Shown: positions 8,024 through 40,448 of the stretch, piece by piece
Layout of the letters: the number at the start of each line of letters is the position of its first letter
Numbering within the stretch: position 1 is the first letter of the stretch
DNA from: a virus
Taxonomy: Duplodnaviria > Heunggongvirae > Uroviricota > Caudoviricetes
IMG/VR virus record: IMGVR_UViG_2880412407_000004
Length of the DNA stretch: 55,013 nt
Direction: 5' to 3' (one strand)
Notes under the pieces: model-generated
The model's database searches: none
What the model was told of the DNA's origin: nothing
What the model saw: only the letters and a program-made list of their open reading frames with translations
Program-made: the position numbers and the translations under genes

Positions 8024-8521
8024 TTGATGAGTATAGAAATGGATCTACTCGTTATTCTCGGACGAGTGTTCAGTAATGAACCTCTGGAGAGAACCATGTA
8101 TATGATCGTTATCTGGGTTGGACTTCTGCTTTTAAGCCCAGATAACTGGCCTGAATATGTTAATGAGAGAATCGGTATTCCTCATGTGTGGCATGTTTTC
8201 GTCTTTGCTCTTGCATTTTCGCTAGCAATTAATGTGCATCGATTATCAGCTATTGCCAGCGCCAGATATAAGCGATTTAAGCTAAGAAAACGCATGAAGA
8301 TGCAAAACGATAAAGTGCGATCAGTAATTCAAAACCTTACAGAAGAGCAATCTATGGTTTTGTGCGCAGCCCTTAATGAAGGCAGGAAGTATGTGGTTAC
8401 ATCAAAACAATTCCCATACATTAGTGAGTTGATTGAGCTTGGTGTGTTGAACAAAACTTTTCCCGATGGAACGGGAAGCATATATTATTCCCTATTGAGG
8501 ATATTTACTGGACTGAATTAG
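8024..8521 (+). CDS. sieB: Superinfection exclusion protein SieB
   Basis: 165-aa hydrophobic ORF on + strand between ral and N, the lambda sieB position and orientation. Confidence 0.65.
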   Translation: MMSIEMDLLVILGRVFSNEPLERTMYMIVIWVGLLLLSPDNWPEYVNERIGIPHVWHVFVFALAFSLAINVHRLSAIASARYKRFKLRKRMKMQNDKVRSVIQNLTEEQSMVLCAALNEGRKYVVTSKQFPYISELIELGVLNKTFPDGTGSIYYSLLRIFTGLN

Positions 8522-8577
8522 TTGCCAGCTATGATCCATATAATATTGAGATAAAGCCAAGGCCAATATCTAAGTAA

Positions 8578-8901
8578 CTAGGTAAGAGGAATCGATTTTC
8601 CCTTAATTTTCTGGCGTCCACTGCATGTTATGCCGCGTTCGCCAGGCTTGCTGTACCATGTGCGCTGATTCTTGCGCTCAATACGTTGCAGGTTGCTTTC
8701 AATCTGTTCGTGGTATTCAGCCAGCACTGTAAGGTCTATCGGATTTAGTGCGCTTTCTACTCGTGATTTCGGTTTGCGATTCAGCGAGAGAATAGGGCGG
8801 TTAACTGGTTTTGCGCTTACCCCAACCAACAGGGGATTTGCTGCTTTCCATTGAGCCTGTTTCTCTGCGCGACGTTCGCGGCGGCGTGTTTGTGCATCCA
8901 T
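8578..8901 (-). CDS. N: Antitermination protein N
   Basis: MDAQTRRRERRAEKQAQWKAANPLLVGVSAKPVNRPILSLNRKPKSRVESALNPIDLTVLAEYH... (107 aa) matches lambda N; ORF-track entry 8578..9033 begins upstream of the true start. Confidence 0.95.
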   Translation of the reverse strand: MDAQTRRRERRAEKQAQWKAANPLLVGVSAKPVNRPILSLNRKPKSRVESALNPIDLTVLAEYHEQIESNLQRIERKNQRTWYSKPGERGITCSGRQKIKGKSIPLT

Positions 8902-9059
8902 CTGGATTCTCCTGTTAGTTAGCTTTGGTTGTGTGTGGGAGTCGTAGTCCTGAACGAAAACACCCCGCAATGGCACATTGGCAGCTAATCCGGATTCGCA
9001 CTTCCGGCCAATGCTTCGTTTCGTATCACACACACCAAAGCCTTCTGCTTTGAATGCTG

Positions 9060-9090
9060 CCCTTCTTCAGGGCTTAATTTTTAAGAGCAT
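9060..9090 (-). promoter_or_regulatory. nutL (boxB hairpin GCCCTGAAGAAGGGC plus boxA-like TGCTCTTAA)
   Basis: Reverse complement of 9060-9074 is the lambda nutL boxB sequence; boxA-like element at 9082-9090. Confidence 0.65.
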
Positions 9091-9119
9091 CACCTTCATG
9101 GTGGTTAGTGCGTCCTGCT

Positions 9120-9195
9120 GATGCGCTTAGTATCACCGCTAGTGGTATTTGTGTCAACACCGCCAGAGATAATTTATCACCGCAGATGGTTATCT
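9120..9195 (-). promoter_or_regulatory. pL promoter with OL1-OL3 operators
   Basis: Three 17-bp TATCACCGC / ACACCGC operator-type sites (9131-9147, 9155-9171, 9174-9191); -35 TTGACA and -10 GATACT on the minus strand. Confidence 0.75.
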
Positions 9196-9352
9196 GTATG
9201 TTTTTTATATAGATTTATTTTTTGCAGGGTTGTGTGGCTTGGGAGGTGATCGAGAGATCAGAATTGCGTTGTTTAGTGAGTTGCACCTATTAATTTTAAA
9301 ATAAATACAATTGGTTATGTGTTCTTAGGTGGGGCGATCGTGAGGCAAAGAA

Positions 9353-9378
9353 AACCCGGCTCAGTAGCCGGGTTGATG
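9353..9378 (-). terminator. Putative intrinsic terminator downstream of the NYN gene
   Basis: On the minus strand ACCCGGCT-ACTG-AGCCGGGT hairpin followed by a T-rich run, between the NYN gene stop and OL. Confidence 0.4.
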
Positions 9379-9381
9379 GGA

Positions 9382-10239
9382 TTATCGTTTATTTCTTTGA
9401 TGTTTCTTTGCAGACTCAGCTTGAGTGTTTCCATACCTGCGTTTACCGCTATTGTTTTTTCCTCTAGGCTTGCCTTTTTTTCGAGCTTCCCACCAGTCAG
9501 GTGCCGGGTCTGGCTCAACATGTAAAGCATCGGCAAGTCCTGATATCAAGCTGTATGACTGAACTCCATCAATGTGCTCTGACAGTGATGGGGTAACATT
9601 CTGTCTTAGTGGATCAAGAATAAAATCAATACCTTTAATTCTGGCGTGTTTGGCGGCAGGCACAAAGTCTGAGTCCCCAGCAACAAGGACAATTACATCA
9701 ACAAGTTTTTCATAAGCTAAAGTCGTGATATCCATCCCTAGCTTGATATCAACTTGTTTTTGTTTGATGTCATAGTAAAAATCATCATTTGTCAGTTCAT
9801 CCCATTTTTTCGTTCCTTTCATCAGAGCATCAAGGGAGAATGTAGTTAGTTGCCATCGCTTATTATCAACAAGATTCCCTAATCTTAAGGCTGTTTTTCG
9901 AGTTTTTCTTAACTCTTCATGCAGCTCCGTTCTCAGAATATATGATTTTTCGAGTTTGAAATTCTTGCGACCAGGCGTCTTATTGCCAGGCTCAGGAAGT
10001 GGAAGGCGTGTTTGAATGTCGAGTGGTGGACAGTCATAGAAGTAAATTCTATAAAGCTCAAGCGGTTCCCTACGTTCTTGTGATTGACGTTTTCCATTAA
10101 GATGGGAAAGAACCATTGACCATATTACTTTCATTATGCATTGCGCAGTCAGTTCATGCTCGGCGAAGTGTTTACGATGCGTAGCATGAACACGCTGCAT
10201 GAAAAAACCCGCATCAATTAAAATTGCTGCTTTCTTCAT
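9382..10239 (-). CDS. NYN-domain (LabA/PIN-like) protein with highly basic C-terminal tail, at the rexAB position
   Basis: 285-aa ORF; N-terminal AILIDAGFF, QKQVDIKLGMDI and VIVLVAGDSDFVPAAKHARIKGIDFIL fit NYN-domain conserved acidic motifs; C-terminus ARKKGKPRGKNNSGKRRYGNTQAESAKKHQRNKR; co-oriented with and immediately downstream of cI. Confidence 0.6.
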   Translation of the reverse strand: MKKAAILIDAGFFMQRVHATHRKHFAEHELTAQCIMKVIWSMVLSHLNGKRQSQERREPLELYRIYFYDCPPLDIQTRLPLPEPGNKTPGRKNFKLEKSYILRTELHEELRKTRKTALRLGNLVDNKRWQLTTFSLDALMKGTKKWDELTNDDFYYDIKQKQVDIKLGMDITTLAYEKLVDVIVLVAGDSDFVPAAKHARIKGIDFILDPLRQNVTPSLSEHIDGVQSYSLISGLADALHVEPDPAPDWWEARKKGKPRGKNNSGKRRYGNTQAESAKKHQRNKR

Positions 10240-10366
10240 AAGAGTCCCAAAAAAATAGCCCAGAGCCGTTATGCAGATATTAACAATTGTCTGCGAACGG
10301 GGCTGGGCTTGGTTTAATTAATCTATGCCAAGTTGACTGTGCCGTCAACATAAAACTTACTTCCTA

Positions 10367-11083
<717 letters not shown>

Positions 11084-11087
11084 TTAA

Positions 11088-11160
11088 ATCTATCACCGCA
11101 AGGGATAAATATCTAACACCGTGCGTGTTGACTATTTTACCTCTTGCGGTGATAATGGTT
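11088..11160. promoter_or_regulatory. OR1-OR3 operators with divergent pRM and pR
   Basis: TATCACCGCAAGGGATA (OR3), TAACACCGTGCGTGTTG (OR2), TACCTCTTGCGGTGATA (OR1); -35 TTGACT and -10 GATAAT upstream of cro. Confidence 0.85.
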
Positions 11161-11171
11161 GCATGTACTAA

Positions 11172-11381
<210 letters not shown>

Positions 11382-11388
11382 ATAACCC

Positions 11389-11435
11389 CGCTCTTACACA
11401 TTCCAGCCCTGAAAAAGGGCATCCAATTAAACCAC
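11389..11435 (+). promoter_or_regulatory. nutR (boxA CGCTCTTAC, boxB GCCCTGAAAAAGGGC)
   Basis: Lambda nutR boxA and boxB sequences between cro and cII. Confidence 0.65.
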
Positions 11436-11499
11436 ACCTATGGTGTATGCATTTATTTGCATACATTCAATCAATTGTTATCTAAGGAAATACTTACAT

Positions 11500-11793
11500 A
11501 TGGTTCGTGCAAACAAACGCAACGAGGCTCTAAGAATCGAGAGTGCGTTGCTTAACAAAATCGCAATGCTTGGAACTGAGAAGACAGCGGAAGCTGTGGG
11601 AGTTGATAAGTCGCAGATCAGCAGGTGGAAGAGAGACTGGATTCCAAAGTTCTCAATGCTGCTTGCTGTTCTTGAATGGGGTGTCGTTGACGACGACATG
11701 GCTCGATTGGCGCGACAAGTTGCTGCGATTCTCACCAATAAAAAACGCCCGGCGGCAACCGAGCGTTCTGAACAAATCCAGATGGAGTTCTGA
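11500..11793 (+). CDS. cII: CII transcriptional activator
   Basis: MVRANKRNEALRIESALLNKIAMLGTEKTAEAVGVDKSQISRWKRDWIPKF... (97 aa) matches lambda CII; ORF-track entry starts upstream. Confidence 0.95.
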   Translation: MVRANKRNEALRIESALLNKIAMLGTEKTAEAVGVDKSQISRWKRDWIPKFSMLLAVLEWGVVDDDMARLARQVAAILTNKKRPAATERSEQIQMEF

Positions 11794-16056: not shown

Positions 16057-17016
16057 TTAAAAAAAGAAGGTGATTGCTCCATTTATAAATGAATAGTCAT
16101 CCCCTGTCTTGAATTCTGATGTTACTTTATTAAATGCTAGTGTGAAGGCTACAGGTGCATACCCAATTGTTGCGCCAACTTGATATTCATCAACAGTTTT
16201 GTTTAGCGATACTGTTGTTTGTTTCGTCTGTATTGTTTTTCCTTCGAGAGTATAGTTGCGATTGACATCTCGTCTTTCCATACCTGCAAAAATCTTGTAT
16301 TTGAATCCGCTTGTATCGGACATATGCATTAAACCACGGGGAGCCAGCAGACCAAAGCCATTATCCGAATTGAAGGTTTTATCATTACCAATGGCAATGG
16401 TTGCGCCATATGCTACATATTGAAATAAGTTTCCAGTAACAGCAGAAACTTCAGGGTATAATCCAACATTAGCACCTAAAATATCCATACTTGGTGTCAT
16501 GGATAGCATCCCTTTTACAGTATAACCGTAGCGATTCTCTATTTGATCATCCCATGCATGATATTTTTCTGCCCCAATAATCTCATGAGCTTTATTTTGT
16601 ACTTTCTGACCGCCTGCGTCGGGGCCAACAACACCTATGTCAGTACCTAATCGATAGCGAATCCAGTCATTCGCAAGGGAGTTCCATTCAATACCTGTGT
16701 GAGTGTATGCGCTAAAAGCTCTGTCTCCAGTTACAGCTGTGTTGTGTCTTTTATTACTGCCTGATGGAGAGTAAATATCTTGCGCAATATGGAGAGATAA
16801 TTGGCTCGAGTCTGAGATATCGTGGCTATATCCCAGAAATAAGCCTTGTGAGTAATCATCTCTGTTTTCATGTTTATTGCCATAAATATCATTAAGTATT
16901 GGTTGAAACTTCCCTGCATCATCATTTGCTAATGATAATGCAAGGCTGTTCGCGATAGCTGAACACGTGGTAAATGACAGAGCAATAAAGACGCCAGCGA
17001 TGACACTTTTTTTCAT
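16057..17016 (-). CDS. Predicted outer-membrane beta-barrel protein (signal peptide, C-terminal aromatic residue); AT-rich cargo gene
   Basis: 319-aa ORF with N-terminal signal-like MKKSVIAGVFIALSFTTCSAIANSLA, alternating Gly/Tyr-rich amphipathic segments, terminal FFF; opposite orientation to flanking phage genes. Confidence 0.55.
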   Translation of the reverse strand: MKKSVIAGVFIALSFTTCSAIANSLALSLANDDAGKFQPILNDIYGNKHENRDDYSQGLFLGYSHDISDSSQLSLHIAQDIYSPSGSNKRHNTAVTGDRAFSAYTHTGIEWNSLANDWIRYRLGTDIGVVGPDAGGQKVQNKAHEIIGAEKYHAWDDQIENRYGYTVKGMLSMTPSMDILGANVGLYPEVSAVTGNLFQYVAYGATIAIGNDKTFNSDNGFGLLAPRGLMHMSDTSGFKYKIFAGMERRDVNRNYTLEGKTIQTKQTTVSLNKTVDEYQVGATIGYAPVAFTLAFNKVTSEFKTGDDYSFINGAITFFF

Positions 17017-17408: not shown

Positions 17409-18182
17409 GTGCTTATGTCGTTTCCCCGATTCGGTTTTGAACGATTACCGAATGTTGAAGAATTATGCCAAAATATAGAAAGGATTTACTGCATGAATAC
17501 CCAATATTTACAGTATGTTCGTGAGCAACTTATGGCAGCTACTGCTGACTTGAACGGAGCAACGAAAGGCCAGCTCGAAGCCTGGCAGGAGCATGCACAA
17601 TTTGATACTGGTACATACAAACGAAAGAAGCCGCGCATTCTGGATGTGGTAACTGGCAAGATGATTACGCTGGATAATACGCCGACTTCCGGTAAGCAGT
17701 CGTACGCAAAAGGTTCATCCATTGCTTTGGTCAGCCCGGTTGAATTCTCAACCTCTTCATGGCGCCGCGCGGTTTTGTCTCTCGATGAACATCAGAAAGC
17801 ATGGTTGCTTTGGTGTTACAGCGAAAGCGTTCGATGGGGGCATCAGGTCACCATAACGCAATGGGCATGGAGCGAGTTTAAAGATTTGTTAAGTAACAGA
17901 AAAATTGCAGGTAAGACACTGGATCGCCTGAAGACGTTAATCTGGCTGGCTGCACAGGATGTGAAGAGCGAACTTGCAGGGCGTGAGGCCTATGAATACC
18001 AGACACTGGCATCATTGGTGGGAGTGACAACAAAAAACTGGTCCGAGACATTTACTGAACGCTGGGTTGCAATGAAGCACATTTTTCTACAGCTTGATAG
18101 TGATGCTTTATTGCTTGTGACGAAAACACGTTCAAAACAAAAGGCAGCATTTTTACAGCAAAATATTGCAAAACTGGATTAA
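17409..18182 (+). CDS. Putative late-gene antiterminator (Q-like) assigned by position; family uncertain
   Basis: 257-aa ORF (possible true start MNTQYLQY at 17493) between the nin region and a hairpin plus T-run; occupies the lambda Q position but is unlike lambda Q. Confidence 0.35.
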   Translation: MLMSFPRFGFERLPNVEELCQNIERIYCMNTQYLQYVREQLMAATADLNGATKGQLEAWQEHAQFDTGTYKRKKPRILDVVTGKMITLDNTPTSGKQSYAKGSSIALVSPVEFSTSSWRRAVLSLDEHQKAWLLWCYSESVRWGHQVTITQWAWSEFKDLLSNRKIAGKTLDRLKTLIWLAAQDVKSELAGREAYEYQTLASLVGVTTKNWSETFTERWVAMKHIFLQLDSDALLLVTKTRSKQKAAFLQQNIAKLD

Positions 18183-18350: not shown

Positions 18351-19109
18351 ATGAGTTGTAAGCCAATGTTATCATCTTGTATTGGGGGGGTTATGAAGGA
18401 TGGTGCGCTGCTCAGGAGTTCTTCACTTTTTATTGCCTACATGGGATGCCTTGGATGGGGGAGTGCTTATTTCTATGGATGGGGTACTTCTTTTTACTAC
18501 GGCTTCCCATGGTGGATTGTAGGTGCAGGTGTTGATGATGTTGCCAGAAGTTTATTTTTTGCAGTTATCGTCATTGCTATATTTCTTATCGGTTGGGGTA
18601 TTGGTGTTGTATTCTTTTTCGCAGTGAAAAGAAAACATTCTATGCAAGAGCTAAATGTATTTCGCCTTTATTTTGCTGTGGAATTATTGTTTGTGCCGGC
18701 AATTATTGAGTTTTCTATATTGAGACAGAAGATTCAGGTACCTCTTTTGCTACTGTCAGCAGCGATTGCGCTGGCGGTTACAATTTCGATAAGATCTTAT
18801 GGGCGATTTTTATCGGTATCATGCTTCTATGATAAGCCATTTATAAAAAAACATTTTTTTGAGATTGTGATGATTGCTTTTGTGGCATATTTCTGGCTTT
18901 TTTCATTTCTGACAGGATATTACAAACCACAGTTTAAGAAAGAATATGAAATGATTAATTATAATGATGGTTGGTATTATGTTCTTGCTCGTTATGATAA
19001 TTGTCTGGTTTTGTCTACTTCTTTCAATGCAGGTAGTAAAAGGTTTGTCATTTATCAATCAGCACAAGATAAGAATCTTCAGGTTGATATTGTAAGGACC
19101 AGAATTTAA
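18351..19109 (+). CDS. Multi-pass inner-membrane protein of unknown function; AT-rich cargo at the stx-equivalent position
   Basis: 252-aa ORF with several hydrophobic helices (WWIVGAGV..., FFAVIVIAIFLIGWGIGVVFFFAV, VPLLLLSAAIALAVTISI, IVMIAFVAYFWLFSFL) and a C-terminal soluble region; low GC relative to phage backbone. Confidence 0.55.
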   Translation: MSCKPMLSSCIGGVMKDGALLRSSSLFIAYMGCLGWGSAYFYGWGTSFYYGFPWWIVGAGVDDVARSLFFAVIVIAIFLIGWGIGVVFFFAVKRKHSMQELNVFRLYFAVELLFVPAIIEFSILRQKIQVPLLLLSAAIALAVTISIRSYGRFLSVSCFYDKPFIKKHFFEIVMIAFVAYFWLFSFLTGYYKPQFKKEYEMINYNDGWYYVLARYDNCLVLSTSFNAGSKRFVIYQSAQDKNLQVDIVRTRI

Positions 19110-19239
19110 TTGGCTGCATAAATAATATTTTAAGTTGCAAGTTGGCTATTCGTAGGAATAGAACCTTAGGCATGCTGAATGCGTTTTCTGAACATTGTTT
19201 TATAAACTGTGTCTGCTTGCTGTTGTGATCCTGCTTTTA

Positions 19240-33497: not shown

Positions 33498-34526
33498 ATG
33501 GGATTGTTTACGACCCGCCAGTTACTCGGTTATACCGAACAAAAAGTGAAATTTCGTGCGCTGTTTCTGGAGCTGTTTTTCCGCCGTACGGTGAATTTCC
33601 ATACCGAAGAGGTGATGCTGGACAAAATTACCGGAAAAACGCCGGTGGCGGCCTATGTCTCCCCGGTTGTTGAAGGAAAAGTGCTGCGTCATCGCGGTGG
33701 TGAAACCCGCGTGTTACGTCCGGGCTACGTCAAGCCGAAACACGAATTTAATTACCAGCAGGCGGTTGAGCGTCTTCCCGGTGAAGATCCGGCTCAACTG
33801 AACGACCCGGCCTACCGTCGTCTGCGTATCATCACCGATAACCTCAAACAGGAAGAGCATGCCATTGTCCAGGTGGAAGAAATGCAGGCGGTGAATGCCG
33901 TGCTGTATGGCAAATACACCATGGAAGGGGATCAGTTTGATACTGTCGAGGTGGATTTTGGACGCTCTGAAGGAAATAACATTGAGCAGGCCGACGGTAA
34001 AAAATGGTCTGAGCAGGACCGTGATACGTTTGATCCGACGCATGATATTGACCTCTACTGCGATCAGGCCAGCGGTCTTGTGAATATTGCCATTATGGAC
34101 GGTACTGTCTGGCGTCTGCTGAATGGTTTTAAGCTGTTCCGAGAAAAACTGGATACCCGTCGCGGCTCAAATTCACAACTCGAAACGGCAGTGAAAGACC
34201 TGGGGGCGGTGGTGTCTTTCAAAGGGTATTACGGCGATCTGGCCATTGTGGTGGCGAAAACGTCTTATGTGGCAGAGGACGGTACCGAAAAACGTTATCT
34301 GCCGGAGGGCACGCTGGTCCTGGGAAATACGGCTGCAGATGGGATCCGTTGTTACGGTGCCATTCAGGATGCGCAGGCGTTGTCCGAAGGTGTGGTGGCT
34401 TCTTCCCGTTACCCGAAACACTGGCTGACCGTGGGCGATCCGGCCCGTGAATTTACCATGACGCAGTCCGCACCGCTGATGGTGCTGCCGGATCCGGATG
34501 AGTTTGTGGTGGTGCAGGTGAAATAA
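33498..34526 (+). CDS. E: Major capsid protein E
   Basis: 342-aa ORF collinear with lambda gpE (341 aa): PGYVKPKHE, AYRRLRII, VEEMQAV, KLDTRRGSNS, GDPAREFTM, SAPLM, DPDEFV. Confidence 0.95.
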   Translation: MGLFTTRQLLGYTEQKVKFRALFLELFFRRTVNFHTEEVMLDKITGKTPVAAYVSPVVEGKVLRHRGGETRVLRPGYVKPKHEFNYQQAVERLPGEDPAQLNDPAYRRLRIITDNLKQEEHAIVQVEEMQAVNAVLYGKYTMEGDQFDTVEVDFGRSEGNNIEQADGKKWSEQDRDTFDPTHDIDLYCDQASGLVNIAIMDGTVWRLLNGFKLFREKLDTRRGSNSQLETAVKDLGAVVSFKGYYGDLAIVVAKTSYVAEDGTEKRYLPEGTLVLGNTAADGIRCYGAIQDAQALSEGVVASSRYPKHWLTVGDPAREFTMTQSAPLMVLPDPDEFVVVQVK

Positions 34527-34529
34527 TCC

Positions 34530-34961
34530 GTGAGCGGAGGCGAAATGCCCCCGTGTCTTTTTTCACAGGGGGCTGATATGGCAACAAAAGAAGAAAATCA
34601 GAAACGTCTTCGTCAACTGGCTGGCCTGCTGGGGCGCGAGGCGGATATGTCGGGGAGTGCTGCGGATATTGCGCAACGTGTGTCTGAGTGGGAAGAGGAG
34701 CTTGCTGCTTCCCGGGAGGGCATTATGCCTGGTGATGAGAGCGGGCCTGAGCAAAATCACACAGACGATGGTGAGCAGTTGCACAACACTGATGCTACGG
34801 ATGATGTTAAAGCGGTCCGTGTGCGGAAATGCCTGCATGTGATGGGGTATTGCCCGGAGACAGGCCGTCCCGTTGAACTGACGTACCGGGGCATGCGTGT
34901 TCTGGTGCCATCACCACTGGCGACAGCCATGATACAGCACGGAACGGCTGAGCATGCGTGA
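34530..34961 (+). CDS. FI: DNA-packaging protein FI (by position)
   Basis: 143-aa acidic ORF between E and FII; weak similarity to lambda FI; probable start MATKEENQ at 34578. Confidence 0.55.
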   Translation: MSGGEMPPCLFSQGADMATKEENQKRLRQLAGLLGREADMSGSAADIAQRVSEWEEELAASREGIMPGDESGPEQNHTDDGEQLHNTDATDDVKAVRVRKCLHVMGYCPETGRPVELTYRGMRVLVPSPLATAMIQHGTAEHA

Positions 34962-35306
34962 TTTTCAGAATGCCTTTGATGCTGCCCTTGCCGGGTGGAC
35001 AGCACGATTGTTGAAGTGATGGGGCTCTGTGCGCAGTTCACCTCGGGGGCACAGTGTGGCAGCGAAGTTCAGGGGGTTTTTGACGATCCGGAGTCGCTGG
35101 GGTTTGCCGGTAGCGGGGTCCGTATTGAAGGAAGCTGCCCGTCATTATTTGTACGGACGGATACGGTTCGTGCTGTGCGGCGTGGTGACACGCTGACCAT
35201 TAATGGTGAGACATTCTGGGTGGATCGTCTTTCTCCGGATGACGGGGGCAGTTGTTATCTCTGGCTCAACCGTGGGCAACCACCGGCAGTTAACCGGCGA
35301 CGATAA
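34954..35306 (+). pseudogene. FII: Head-tail joining protein FII, interrupted by a single-base deletion near the 5-prime end
   Basis: ATG at 34954 encodes MRDFQNAFDAALAG then stops; ORF 34995..35306 continues as lambda FII (SGAQCGSEVQGVFDDPE...VRTDTVR...RGDTLTI...FWVDRLSPDDGGSCYLWL...PPAVNRRR); break at GGG 34993-34995. Confidence 0.75.
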
Positions 35307-35320
35307 ACGCAGGGTGAATT

Positions 35321-35853
35321 ATGGCGATAAAAGGGCTTGATCAGGCGATTGAAAATCTGAGCCGGGTTCGTAAAAACGCCATTCCGGCGGCTTCAGCAAT
35401 GGCCATTAACCGCGTGGCCACAACGGCGATTAATCAGTCTTCGTCACAGGTTGCCCGGGAGACCAGGGTGAGCCGGAAACTGGTAAAGGAACGGTCCAGA
35501 CTGAAACGGGCCACGGTCAGAAATCCGAATGCCAGAATTATCGTTAACCGCGGTGATCTCCCGGTGATTAAGCTGGGGATCAGGATGCCGGGGCGTCGTC
35601 CGGACAGCATACTCAAAGCCGGTCAGCATCGTTATCAGCGGGCATTTATTCAGCGATTAAAAAATGGTCGCTGGCATGTCATGCAGCGTGTGGCCGGGAA
35701 AAACCGTTACCCCATTGATGTGGTGAAAATCCCGATGGCGGCCCCACTGAAACAGGCGTTTGATGAAAACGTTGACCGTATCCGGCGTGAACTCCTGCCG
35801 GAGAACTGGCATATGCGCTGAAACAACAACTGAGGATTGCGATAAAACGATGA
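35321..35853 (+). pseudogene. Z: Tail protein Z, C-terminus out of frame (single-base deletion near 35803)
   Basis: MAIKGLDQAIENLSR...AINRVA...QVARET matches lambda gpZ; restoring one base after CCGGAG gives EELAYALKQQLRIAIKR-stop matching the lambda Z C-terminus and overlapping the U start. Confidence 0.7.
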
Positions 35854-36244
35854 AACATACTGATATCCGTGCTGCAGTGCTGGATGCACTGGAGCTGCAT
35901 GAACACGGGCGACGCTGTTTGATGGTCGCCCCGTTGTTTTTGACGAAGAGGATTTTCCCGCGGTCGCGGTTTATCTGACGGATGCAGAGTATACCGGTGA
36001 AGAGCTGGATGCGGATACCTGGCGGGCCACACTGCATATTGAAGTTTTCCTGCCTGCTCAGGTGCCGGATTCAGAGCTGGATTCGTGGATGGAGTCCCGG
36101 ATTTATCCGGCGATGTCCGCGATCCCTGCACTGGCAGGGATGATTACCACGATGGTTCAGCAGGGCTATGACTATCGTCGTGATGACGATATGGCGTTAT
36201 GGAGCTCTGCAGATTTGACTTATTCCATTACATACGAGATGTGA
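35850..36244 (+). pseudogene. U: Tail protein U, interrupted by a single-base deletion
   Basis: MKHTDIRAAVLDALELHEHG then frame break at GGG 35906-35908; ORF 36062..36244 ([60 protein letters not shown]) matches the lambda U C-terminus. Confidence 0.8.
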
Positions 36245-36251
36245 GGACGAT

Positions 36252-37004
36252 ATGCCAACACCAAATCCCCTGGCGCCGGTAAAAGGTGCCGGTACCACTC
36301 TGTGGGTTTACACCGGCAAGGGTGATGCTTATGCAAACCCGTTGTCAGATGATGACTGGCAGCGACTGGCTAAGGTGAAGGATCTGACGCCGGGCGAGAT
36401 GACGGCAGAATCCTACGATGATAACTACCTGGATGATGAAGACGCGGACTGGAGCGCGACCGGGCAGGGACAGAAATCTGCAGGTGATACCAGTTTTACA
36501 CTGGCCTGGAAACCGGGAGAAGAAGGTCAGAAAGGGCTTATAGGCTGGTTTGAAAGCGGGGATGTGCGGGCCTATAAAATCCGTTTTCCGAATGGCACGG
36601 TGGATGTGTTTCGTGGCTGGATCAGCAGTATCGGTAAGGCAGTGACGGCGAAAGAAGTGATCACCCGAACAGTGAAAGTGACCAACGTGGGCAAACCTTC
36701 CGTGGCGGAAGAACGCAGCGAAATTACGCCGGCCACTGCAATTAAGGTGACACCGACATCCGGTACCGTGGAAAAAGGAAAAACAACCACCCTGACTGTT
36801 TCTTTTGAGCCGGAAAGTGCAACCGACAAGACGTTCAGAGCGGTTTCCGCCGATCCGTCAACGGGAACCATTGCTGTGAAAGATATGGTGATCACTGTGA
36901 CGGGGGTTAAGGCTGGAAAAGTGAGTATCCCCGTGATTTCCGGTAATGGTCAGTTTGCCACGGTAGCTGAAGTCACCGTTACTGAAGCGGGCGCTGCAGG
37001 GTAA
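36252..37004 (+). CDS. V: Major tail protein V (with C-terminal Ig-like domain)
   Basis: 250-aa ORF collinear with lambda gpV. Confidence 0.9.
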
Positions 37005-37017
37005 ACGGAGGTCATAC

Positions 37018-37449
37018 ATGTTTCTGAAAACAGAACAATTTGAATATAACGGTGTGTCTGTCACGCTTTCCGAATTGTCTGCGCTGCAGCGTATTGAGCA
37101 TCTTGCCCTCCTGAAACGGCGTGCAGAACAGGCAGAATCCAGCGGCAACCTGCAGGTAAGCGTGGAAGATCTCGTCAGAACCGGCGCGTTTCTGGTGGCG
37201 ATGTCCCTGTGGCATAACCATCCGCAGAAAACGGGGTCACCGTCAATGAATGAGGCCGTGATGCAGATTGAGCAGGAAGTCCTGACCACCTGGCCTGCTG
37301 ATGCCATTGCCCGGGCGGAAGATGTGGTGTTGCGTCTGTCCGGGATGAGCGGGCCTGTTCATGTGGATACGGATATTACCGAAGTGGCGAAAAATAACGC
37401 GCTGACTGATGATGATTTTTCTGCGGGAAAGTCTTCGACGGCGAGCTGA
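37018..37449 (+). CDS. G: Tail assembly chaperone G
   Basis: 143-aa ORF at the gpG position, ending just after the slippery site. Confidence 0.85.
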   Translation: MFLKTEQFEYNGVSVTLSELSALQRIEHLALLKRRAEQAESSGNLQVSVEDLVRTGAFLVAMSLWHNHPQKTGSPSMNEAVMQIEQEVLTTWPADAIARAEDVVLRLSGMSGPVHVDTDITEVAKNNALTDDDFSAGKSSTAS

Positions 37450-37889
37450 ATTTTGCCCTCAGACTGGCGCGTGAGATGGGGAGGCCTGACTGGCGCGCCA
37501 TGCTTGCCGGGATGACATCCACCGAATATGCCGACTGGCGACATTTTTACCGCACGCATTATTTTCACGATACCCAACTGGATATGCATTTTTCCGGGCT
37601 GACGTACGCTGTACTCAGCCTGTTTTTTTGCGATCCGGATATGCATCCCTCTGATTTCAGTCTGCTTGTCCCCCGGCATGAGGAAGAGCAGGTGGAGAGG
37701 CCGGATGAGGACAAAATGCTGATGCAGAAAGCGGCAGGACTTGCCGGAGGCGTCCGGTTCGGTGGGGACGGAGGGCGCGATATTTTATCGTCTGCGGATG
37801 TGGCGGATGTCATGGTGGATGATGCCGCATTAATGATGGCTTCAGCGGGGATTTCCGGAGGTGTGAGATATGTCCCAGCCGGTTGGTGA
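37018..37889 (+). CDS. GT: Tail assembly chaperone G-T fusion made by programmed -1 ribosomal frameshift
   Basis: Slippery heptamer G GGA AAG at 37425-37431 in the G frame; ORF 37476..37889 lies in the -1 frame relative to G. Confidence 0.8.
37425..37431 (+). promoter_or_regulatory. Programmed -1 frameshift slippery site GGGAAAG
   Basis: Identical heptamer and frame arrangement to the lambda G/GT recoding site. Confidence 0.8.
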
Positions 37890-40448
37890 TCTTGTTATTG
37901 ACCTTAGTCTGGATGCGGTCCGTTTCGATGAGCAGATGAGCCGGGTAAGGCGTCATTTTTCAGGTCTGGATACCGACGCCAGAAAAACCGCCAGTGCTGT
38001 TGAACAGGGCCTGAGCCGCCAGGCGCTGGCTGCACAAAAAGCCGGGATTTCCGTCGGGCAGTATAAAGCGGCCATGCGAACCCTGCCCGCACAGTTTACG
38101 GATATCGCCACGCAGCTTGCCGGTGGTCAGAATCCCTGGCTGATCCTGCTGCAACAGGGCGGTCAGGTGAAGGACTCCTTCGGCGGGATGATCCCCATGT
38201 TCAGGGGGCTTGCCGGTGCGATCACCCTGCCGATGGTCGGGGTCACCTCGCTGGCGGTGGCGACAGGTGCGCTGGCGTACGCCTGGTACCAGGGGATTCC
38301 ACGCTTTCAGCGTTTAATAAAACCCTGGTTCTTTCCGGTAATCAGTCCGGACTGACTGCCGATCGCATGCTGACGCTCTCCAGAGCCGGACAGGCCGCAG
38401 GGCTGACGTTTAACCAGGCGAGTGAGTCACTGGCAGCCCTGGTGAATGCCGGTGTGCGTGGTGGTGAACAGTTTGATGCCATCAACCAGAGTGTCGCGCG
38501 TTTTGCTTCTGCATCCGGTGTGGAGGTGGACAAGGTTGCAGAGGCTTTCGGAAAACTGACCACCGACCCTACGTCGGGGCTGATTGCGATGGCGCGCCAG
38601 TTCCGTAACGTGACGGCAGAGCAGATTGCGTATGTTGCGCAGCTGCAGCGTTCCGGTGATGAGGCCGGGGCCTTACAGGCGGCGAACGATATCGCCACGA
38701 AAGGCTTTGATGAGCAGACCCGTCGCCTGAAAGAAAACATGGGGACACTGGAGACCTGGGCGGATAAAACCGGGAAGGCATTCAAATCGATGTGGGATGC
38801 CATTCTGGATATCGGTCGTCCTGAGTCCTCAGCGGATATGCTCGCCAGTGCACAGAAGGCATTTGATGAGGCGGATAAAAAATGGCAGTGGTACCAGAGC
38901 CGGAGCCAGCGCCGGGGAAAAACCGCCTCTTTTCGTGCGAACCTTCAGGGTGCATGGAATGACCGGGAAAATGCCCGTCTGGGGCTGGCAGCGGCCACGC
39001 TGCAGTCGGATATGGAAAAAGCCGGTGAACTGGCCGCCAGGGACCGGGCCGAACGGGACGCATCACAGCTGAAGTATACCGGAGAGGCGCAGAAGGCGTA
39101 TGAGCGTCTGCTGACGCCGCTGGAGAAATATACCGCCCGTCAGGAAGAACTGAATAAGGCCCTGAAAGACGGGAAAATCCTGCAGGCGGATTACAACACG
39201 CTGATGGCGGCGGCGAAAAAGGATTATGAATCGACGCTGAAAAAGCCGAAGTCGTCAGGAGTCAAAGTGTCAGCCGGTGAGCGTCAGGAAGACCAGGCGC
39301 ATGCTGCCCTGCTGGCGCTTGAAACCGAGCTCCGGACGCTGGAAAAACACAGCGGTGCGAATGAGAAAATCAGCCAGCAGCGTCGCGATTTATGGAAAGC
39401 GGAAAATCAGTATGCGGTCCTGAAAGAGGCAGCCACGAAACGGCAGTTATCTGAGCAGGAAAAATCCCTGCTGACCCATGAGAAAGAGACGCTGGAGTAC
39501 AAACGCCAGCTGGCTGAGCTGGGAGACAAAGTTGAACACCAGAAACGGCTGAATGAGCTGGCACAGCAGGCTGCGCGGTTTGAGCAGCAGCAGGGCGCGA
39601 AGCAGGCGGCAATCAGTGCCCAGGCGCGGGGCCTCACCGACCGTCAGGCGCAGCGGGAGTCGGAAGAGCAGCGCCTTCGTGACGTGTACGGTGATAATCC
39701 GGATGCGCTGGCGAAGGCCACATCGGCACTGAAGAACACCTGGTCTGCGGAGGAGCAGCTTCGTGGAAGCTGGATGGCCGGTCTGAAGTCCGGCTGGGGC
39801 GAGTGGGCAGAAAGTGCGACGGACAGTTTTTCGCAGGTTAAAAGCGTGGCCACGCAGACCTTTGACGGTATTGCACAGAATATGGCAGCGATGCTGACCG
39901 GCAGCGAACAGAACTGGCGTGGTTTCACCCGTTCTGTGCTCTCCATGCTGACAGAGATTTTTCTGAAGCAGGCGATGGTGGGGATAGTCGGGAGTATCGG
40001 CAGCGCCATTGGCGGTGCTTTCGGTGGTGGTGCGTCTGCCTCCACGGGGACGGCCATTCAGGCTGCGGCGGCGAACTTCCATTTCGCGACCGGGGGATTT
40101 ACGGGGACGGGGGGTAAATATGAACCTGCGGGAATTGTTCATCGCGGGGAGTTTGTCTTCACGAAGGAAGCAACCAGCCGGATTGGCGTCGGCAACCTGT
40201 ACCGCCTGATGCGGGGCTATGCGGAAGGTGGTTATGTGGGCGGTGCCGGAAGTTCGGCGCAGATGCGGCGGACGGAAGGCATTAATTTTAATCAGAACAA
40301 TCACGTGGTGATTCAGAACGACGGCACCAACGGACAGGCGGGGCCGCAGCTGATGAAGGCGGTGTATGACATGGCCCGCAAGGGGGCGCAGGATGAGATT
40401 CAGGCGCAGATGCGTGATGGCGGCGTCTTTTCCGGAGGCAGGCGATGA
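37870..40448 (+). pseudogene. H: Tape measure protein H, interrupted by a single-base deletion
   Basis: ORFs 37870..38355 (161 aa) and 38367..40448 (693 aa) together align to lambda gpH (853 aa); break near 38296 (CAGGGGATTCC where lambda has CAGGGGAATTCC). Confidence 0.9.

Follow-up and report, generated by a model that had tools for sequence, protein, structure and literature searches.

What occupies the place of the exclusion genes rexA and rexB in a lambda-type immunity region that does not contain them, and how is this occupant expressed and controlled? The question is raised by a 55,013-nt Caudoviricetes record (IMGVR_UViG_2880412407_000004; the whole stretch is called the window below), in which a gene for a 285 amino acid (aa) NYN-domain protein lies between the repressor gene cI and the leftward promoter pL. 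A sequence-only reading of this DNA had noted the NYN-type gene in the rexAB slot and regarded it as a prophage-encoded exclusion or anti-phage defence gene. Its observation is confirmed here and its interpretation is, overall, supported in part. The gene belongs to a cassette that forms a self-contained mobile unit: a predicted σ70 promoter, a short structured RNA with a terminator and the gene for the predicted NYN nuclease. The leader RNA, which is not listed in Rfam, is the most distinctive feature of this cassette.

The borders of the cassette are defined by its junctions with the lambda backbone. In BLAST comparisons, window positions 8042-9374 correspond to positions 34500-35826 of lambda (NC_001416; 96%) and positions 10360-11540 to lambda 37219-38400 (98%). 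The breakpoints bracket the cassette, and the claim that rexAB has been replaced thus holds exactly: lambda 35827-37218, comprising rexB, rexA and the cI-rexA spacer, is swapped for 985 bp. The cassette has a guanine-plus-cytosine (GC) content of 41% compared with 50% for the window; that of lambda rexAB is also 41%. Its left joint coincides exactly with the foot of a hairpin, and lambda has the identical stem and the identical U-rich tail at this site. Therefore, the terminator downstream of the NYN gene, previously taken for the gene's own, is lambda tImm. Homology of the NYN protein to RexA or RexB was not detected; its Pfam and PADLOC matches are solely to NYN-domain models, including HEC-09.

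The protein was assigned to the NYN family by profile searches, alignment and structure prediction. Its sequence contains the motifs AILIDAGFF, VDIKLGMDI and VLVAGDSDF that had been noted before. PF01936 (NYN) matches with 36.8 bits (gathering score 24.2) at residues 158-205 only, and the match to TIGR00288 in NCBIfam is weak and partial (29.6 bits versus a cut-off of 178). In PHROGs, the protein falls into phrog_5783 (function unknown, E = 3e-119). PADLOC-DB v2 (2023) contains no system model with a significant full-length match; two short sub-threshold matches over 46 residues were obtained, to HEC-09 (E = 2e-4) and to the NYN model PDLC01154 (E = 1.4e-3). A search of 5.8 billion proteins yielded 7033 relatives, most of them 250-290 aa long and aligning over nearly the full length, from a wide variety of Gammaproteobacteria. 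An alignment of 43 relatives with 41-86% identity to the window protein shows no variation at six aspartates (D9, D69, D164, D170, D189 and D191), at a number of basic residues and in a PxWW motif, which precedes a K/R-rich C-terminal tail (residues ~256-285). Apart from this tail, which is disordered, AlphaFold predicted the structure with confidence (predicted local distance difference test score, 87.9; predicted template-modelling score, 0.81), and the model displays a PIN-like alpha/beta fold of the NYN type; Foldseek agrees on MARF1. Profile and single-sequence searches against solved structures found nothing meaningful, and matches were obtained by fold comparison alone. These data bear out three statements made earlier from the sequence: the protein is NYN/PIN-like with conserved aspartates, its C-terminal tail is strongly basic, and it belongs to no characterised system, since PADLOC (2023), PHROGs, NCBIfam and the searchable literature provide no characterised function. 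The fold and the invariant aspartates predict a metal-dependent nuclease, the substrate of which is probably RNA and not DNA.

Between cI and the NYN gene, a leader RNA is encoded that resembles an intrinsic terminator. Its predicted structure is a 53-nt three-part hairpin (10309..10257) with stems of 7, 5 and 5 bp and a 12-nt loop, followed by one A and a run of seven U (10255..10249), the last of which is 10 nt away from the start codon. The same layout of promoter, hairpin, U-tract and gene was found in every homologous locus examined, be it on a prophage, a plasmid or a chromosome, and across several phyla: in eight loci at first, then in 48 distinct upstream regions from viral contigs, and then on plasmids. 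Among the latter, plasmids from Thermus, Xanthomonas and Aeromonas carry the leader, and those from Campylobacter a simpler hairpin. Two leader classes can be distinguished. In class A, to which the leader of the window belongs, an alignment of 15 distinct sequences has 97.3% of its cells paired; in controls with the partners shifted by 1-3 columns, this share drops to 27-45%. Compensatory double changes are present in 13 of 17 pairs. G-U pairs occur on the sense strand only, which points to an RNA and not to a DNA site. Class B leaders accompany more distant proteins and consist of two stems, between which conserved internal loops are located (5' side, NAC; 3' side, CNAC(C)); here, 97.6% of the cells are paired and 9 of 15 pairs are compensatory. 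A covariance model of class A does not detect class B leaders. This model finds its own class with 58-83 bits (82.4 bits in the window); each locus has a single match, which in all cases immediately precedes the gene on the same strand. No further match of 27 bits or more was obtained in the 397 kb searched, and neither lambda nor loci in which the slot is occupied differently gave a match.

The conservation of the hairpin exceeds that of its surroundings. In six loci, the 54-nt hairpin is 100% identical (54/54), while the nucleotide identity of the open reading frame (ORF) to that of the window is just 76-88%, third codon positions are 47-70% identical and the adjoining promoter regions 69-85%. 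Rfam 15 has no match at the leader, either in the window at E values up to 10 or above gathering thresholds in 14 homologous loci, and Tandem Repeats Finder detected no tandem repeats between positions 9300 and 10450. A 23-codon ORF (10280..10351, minus strand) overlapping promoter and hairpin was considered as a peptide antitoxin. It was rejected because its start is located upstream of the predicted transcription start and because the region varies by compensatory pair changes instead of codon-wise. In the predicted minimum-energy fold, CCA 5' of the hairpin (10310-10313) pairs with UGG of the probable Shine-Dalgarno region (10245-10256). This pairing, which several close relatives could form as well, might mask translation in read-through transcripts.

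Upstream of the hairpin, a σ70-like promoter was predicted, the -10 hexamer of which ends 8 nt short of the RNA model. Predicted promoters with scores of 8-12 out of 12 are found at a fixed distance in 24 of 24 distinct class A loci; there, the -10 hexamer ends 6-16 nt before the model start, which lies 2 nt before the stem. Consequently, the transcript is expected to begin at the foot of the hairpin, with just ~0-10 nt between predicted start site and hairpin. As this leaves no sequence 5' of the hairpin from which an alternative antiterminator could be built, the leader is not an attenuator of the riboswitch type. The stretch between U-tract and start codon, 16 nt in the window and at most ~50 nt elsewhere, is too short for a promoter. 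This means, the mRNA of the nuclease must be produced by read-through of the leader from either the cassette promoter or pRM/pRE. As had been stated, the gene is co-oriented with cI, which is located immediately upstream on the same minus strand. The simple co-transcription with cI from pRM that had been proposed is unlikely, because a conserved terminator-like hairpin and the cassette promoter separate the two genes. An inverted repeat of the type TTGAC-N6-9-GTCAA overlaps the -35 box in many, not all, relatives (eight loci serve as examples). Judged by its sequence, it could represent an autoregulatory operator or, alternatively, the -35 box of a divergent promoter. In four loci, a second TTGACA was seen ~30 nt further upstream. 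The coordinates of all features are compiled in Table 1.

Table 1. Features of the cassette and of the surrounding prophage (coordinates refer to the window).
Feature	Position	Strand	Remarks	Basis
Cassette in place of lambda rexB, rexA and the cI-rexA spacer	9375..10359		985 bp	BLAST breakpoints versus lambda NC_001416; composition
Predicted nuclease gene, NYN domain (PIN-like)	9382..10239	-	intact ORF, 285 aa	profiles, alignment, predicted fold
Conserved leader RNA, intrinsic-terminator-like	10250..10311	-		fold, covariation, covariance-model match
σ70-like cassette promoter	10320..10348	-	TTGACG, 17-nt spacer, TAGATT	sequence prediction
Operator-like inverted repeat	10332..10349	-	GTTGAC-N6-GTCAAC, overlaps -35 box	sequence inspection
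Probable Shine-Dalgarno sequence	10245..10248	-	GGGA, directly after U-tract	sequence reading, inference
Terminator hairpin 3' of NYN gene, counterpart of lambda tImm	9353..9374	-	lambda backbone	comparison with lambda
Lambda-type cI repressor gene	10367..11080	-	directly upstream of and co-oriented with NYN gene	
pL promoter	9129..9157	-	TTGACA, 17-nt spacer, GATACT; downstream of cassette, transcribes away from it	
LpxR-family outer-membrane protein gene (lipid A deacylase family)	16057-17016	-	319 aa	Pfam, E = 7e-40
Antiterminator Q gene	17409-18182			
252-aa ORF, then NanS-p-like esterase gene	18351-21501	+	downstream of Q; esterase with SASA + DUF6645	
IS3-family transposase gene	48851-49669	-	rve, HTH_21; inserted in late/tail region	

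Relatives of the gene reside on a variety of mobile elements. The one with 81% identity is likewise located after cI, in a Brenneria prophage whose replication module differs. In Edwardsiella prophages, relatives with 54-58% identity separate antiterminator Q from the holin gene and are encoded on the opposite strand, and in Halomonas and Shewanella, those with ~50% identity adjoin the integrase at the end of a prophage. Further members were found in phages of Proteus, Burkholderia, Dorea, Streptococcus and Lactococcus; gp9 of Burkholderia phage phiE202, annotated as 'Cpp15', belongs to this NYN family. One Edwardsiella prophage with a relative also carries a C4 antisense RNA and an isrK RNA near its ant/immunity region, both above Rfam thresholds. 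On an IncP-like Pseudomonas plasmid, the relative adjoins higBA and mvaT, and on Acinetobacter Rep_3 plasmids a pair of helix-turn-helix (HTH) and ImmA genes as well as toxin-antitoxin (TA) genes. Searches with tblastn revealed relatives on 170 plasmid records, 129 of them conjugative, from Campylobacter, Xanthomonas, Aeromonas and Thermus. Of these, 136 are Campylobacter plasmids of the pTet type, for which the gene is standard; it adjoins a very large SNF2-related gene, with a relaxase gene nearby. The relative on Thermus thermophilus plasmid pTthSNM1-7b (44% identity) has its own leader with promoter, hairpin and U-tract; its embedded position resembles positions that have been used to nominate defence candidates. 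This distribution fits an accessory, conflict-related gene.

In Escherichia coli, the cassette exists in two forms. Among 5426 complete genomes, the leader is present in 275, and at least 80% of the ORF in just 74, always in a prophage. A truncated allele in ~200 genomes, mainly O157:H7, has retained promoter and leader but, of the gene, just the initial 348-355 nt, and has thus lost the catalytic C-terminal half. An example is ECs_0273 beside cI in the defective lambda-like prophage Sp1 of strain Sakai. A free-standing leader was not found, as all 275 leader-bearing genomes keep at least the 348-355-nt 5' part of the gene. In RefSeq, PGAP splits the intact 285-codon ORF into a 146-aa NYN protein (117 aa in one genome) and an N-terminal pseudogene labelled 'incomplete', 'PIN domain-containing' or 'hypothetical', probably because the truncated allele is so common; the phage RefSeq record NC_049953 keeps the full, single coding sequence. 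Hence, searches of RefSeq proteins see only pieces of the family in E. coli.

The same 5426 genomes were searched with the two lambda-like flanks joined in order to survey the slot between cI and pL. Prophages with these flanks carry after cI either rexAB, the NYN gene, a protein with the C-terminal domain of BstA, or KilA-N (253 aa), P63C (311 aa), DUF1828 (with a 180-aa partner) or ParA-family proteins. The latter four are uncharacterised and represent candidates for further exclusion genes. The cI-N region, in which bstA is located downstream of cI, is a known hotspot of mosaic diversity that can also hold rexAB (PMC8585504). The cI-pL slot is therefore a genuine hotspot for exclusion genes; the hotspot idea is known already, while its NYN occupant is uncharacterised.

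How could such a cassette work? The chances seem to us evenly balanced that it encodes a toxic NYN RNase which is restrained by the leader RNA, is expressed in the lysogen and serves abortive infection or exclusion, possibly also addiction to the element. Most transcripts from the cassette promoter or from pRM/pRE would end at the leader terminator and yield a hairpin RNA of ~60 nt, and read-through alone would provide a little nuclease mRNA. If termination is efficient, the RNA would be in large excess over the protein, as it is in type III TA loci. Since conservation of the hairpin, loop included, surpasses that of the protein, specific recognition of this RNA by the NYN protein is likely: the RNA could be bound and thereby inhibit the nuclease, or it could be cleaved in an autoregulatory circuit. 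As the cassette encodes a single protein and appears to function in hosts of several phyla, the simplest assumption is that this protein itself recognises the RNA. In the lysogen, the leader RNA would hold the toxic RNase in check. Infection, for instance through shutoff of host transcription or RNA decay, would free the nuclease and thereby cause abortive infection or exclusion; loss of the element would act likewise and lead to addiction.

Of the known systems, type III TA loci (ToxIN, CptIN, TenpIN) come closest in design. They share with the cassette the order of promoter, non-coding RNA, intrinsic terminator and endoribonuclease gene as well as the carriage on plasmids and phages. In these loci, the terminator between RNA and toxin gene sets the ratio of the two (PMC3401426), and the terminator of the cassette should likewise ensure a high RNA-to-toxin ratio. 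In terms of promoter and terminator, the cassette thus resembles a type III locus, but it lacks the repeats and the toxin fold and is not a canonical one: matches to toxins of the ToxN, AbiQ, CptN or TenpN type were found neither in Pfam nor in PADLOC. AbiF/RCd22 from a Clostridioides difficile prophage combines a single-protein toxin with a conserved structured RNA upstream, which is both attenuator and RNA antitoxin (PMC12373285), that is, it lowers transcription in cis and neutralises AbiF in trans. The differences lie in the protein, which is Abi_2, HEPN-like, and in the RNA motif, which is unrelated; Rfam searches detected no motif in the cassette. Lambda RexAB and BstA of Salmonella phage BTP1 occupy the identical slot, after a co-oriented cI and before pL/N, and are low-GC accessory cassettes, too. 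Neither shows sequence or fold kinship to the NYN protein: RexAB is a membrane-depolarising two-protein system and BstA a KilA-N protein with a DNA self-immunity element.

Several NYN proteins invite comparison as well. MARF1 (PDB 5yaa) and the LabA-like VPA0982 (PDB 2qip) share 16-18% identity with the cassette protein, without a match at the sequence level. In contrast to their NYN domains, the cassette protein has two insertions (~70-97 and 121-160), the PxWW motif and the basic tail, and is borne by mobile elements. Regnase-1/ZC3H12A, a eukaryotic NYN/PIN-like RNase that recognises stem-loops, exerts feedback control by cutting its own mRNA; however, its target stem-loops are located in 3' untranslated regions and no terminator is involved. 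HEC-09 and PDLC01154 are NYN proteins tied to defence loci, with a weakly similar catalytic core, but they match over ~45 residues only, and HEC-09 possesses an N-terminal HTH-like domain. Identity with DS-3 from DefensePredictor (WP_022645725.1, a split-PIN system of one protein) was considered and rejected: the sequence in Table S8 has 340 aa, reads MSRMIIDTNILYS... and is unrelated in sequence and length. RNA-controlled toxin or abortive-infection modules are thus known, but none is known to combine an NYN toxin with a single-hairpin leader. It is tempting to see in the NYN nuclease and its ~60-nt hairpin RNA a new class of type III-like, RNA-antitoxin TA/abortive-infection systems, with a single hairpin in place of repeats and a PIN-like toxin, spread by temperate phages and conjugative plasmids through Proteobacteria, Deinococcota and, probably, Firmicutes and occupying the RexAB slot of some prophages with lambda immunity; this extension is tentative and we rate it as doubtful.

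Several observations weigh against a toxin restrained by its leader RNA. Unlike the RNA of type III TA systems, that of the cassette is a single hairpin free of tandem repeats, and the predicted toxin fold is not ToxN/Kid-like. The PADLOC matches mentioned above are weak and partial, and for HEC-09, a different NYN candidate, no protection was seen with any tested phage (bioRxiv 2024.01.29.577857). The E. coli NYN candidate of DefensePredictor (NYND, WP_001399740.1, 215 aa) was cloned and bears no system name, i.e. it was not validated; it may or may not be kin to the cassette family. The Thermus relative is flanked by a helicase-related gene and a large N6-DNA-methylase gene instead of residing in a prophage slot, and the Proteus relative is a conserved single chromosomal gene beside glmS, so that not all members are prophage morons. 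Through leader hairpins, RNases such as RNase III and RNase E regulate the mRNAs by which they are encoded, and a leader that is solely a cis-acting autoregulatory or attenuating element is the most serious rival, albeit an improbable one. The NYN enzyme would then be no defence or addiction toxin and would serve the element, for instance by tuning lysogeny through processing or degradation of certain RNAs of host or phage, or by eliminating RNAs on which host defence relies. The position of the conserved hairpin directly before the ORF, the conjugative-plasmid copies near SNF2/helicase and relaxase genes, where anti-defence genes occur as well, and the two other NYN candidates without defence activity are in line with this explanation. 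It accounts less well for the slots between cI and pL, between Q and holin and next to integrases, often opposite to lytic genes, which fit morons expressed in the lysogen. The first of these slots also holds the abortive-infection systems RexAB and BstA, toxin-antitoxin genes are frequent neighbours, and a terminator that makes the RNA far exceed the mRNA is more than simple feedback needs.

Still less weight is given to a module that purely stabilises prophages and plasmids by addiction and has no anti-phage role. The plasmid records with their high share of conjugative elements, the adjoining TA pairs and the layout reminiscent of RNA antitoxins would agree with it. However, type III and many other TA systems do both jobs, which makes this explanation overlap with a defensive toxin more than compete with it, and the other occupants of the hotspot are exclusion systems. 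A PIN-like DNA nuclease of the FEN/5'-exonuclease type that attacks replication or recombination intermediates of incoming DNA is very unlikely. Finally, a housekeeping LabA-type protein caught in a prophage by chance had been named at the outset as the finding that would overturn a role in exclusion. Although the gene is a conserved chromosomal one in Proteus and some relatives are named LabA/DUF88, this explanation is hardly credible and largely refuted by the distribution: the contexts are overwhelmingly accessory slots of prophages and plasmids, the rare intact E. coli copies always reside in prophages, the Pfam scan found no LOTUS/OST-HTH or other LabA partner domain in the protein, and the cassette deviates from the window in GC content.

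The rest of the prophage carries further candidates for accessory genes. The gene for the LpxR-family protein, on the opposite strand just upstream of antiterminator Q, looks like a lysogenic-conversion accessory. Downstream of Q, an ORF without a Pfam match precedes the gene for the NanS-p-like esterase, a layout typical of Shiga toxin-converting (Stx) phages; searches with peptide motifs found no stx genes in the window. An IS3-family transposase gene is inserted in the late or tail region.

In E. coli O121 genomes, a lambda-type prophage has this cassette in its RexAB slot, and so do the O121:H19 Stx2a-converting phages. If its leader controls or neutralises the nuclease, the cassette would represent a toxin or defence module of RNA and protein that is widespread and has so far not been listed. 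In that case, a structured RNA family would be added to a field that comprises very few of them, such as the ToxI-type repeats and the abiF motif. Screens that clone bare ORFs or rely on RefSeq could miss such an activity, which may bear on the failures of NYN candidates. Furthermore, with a size of ~1 kb, the cassette would offer a compact system for studying how a terminator sets the ratio of RNA to toxin.

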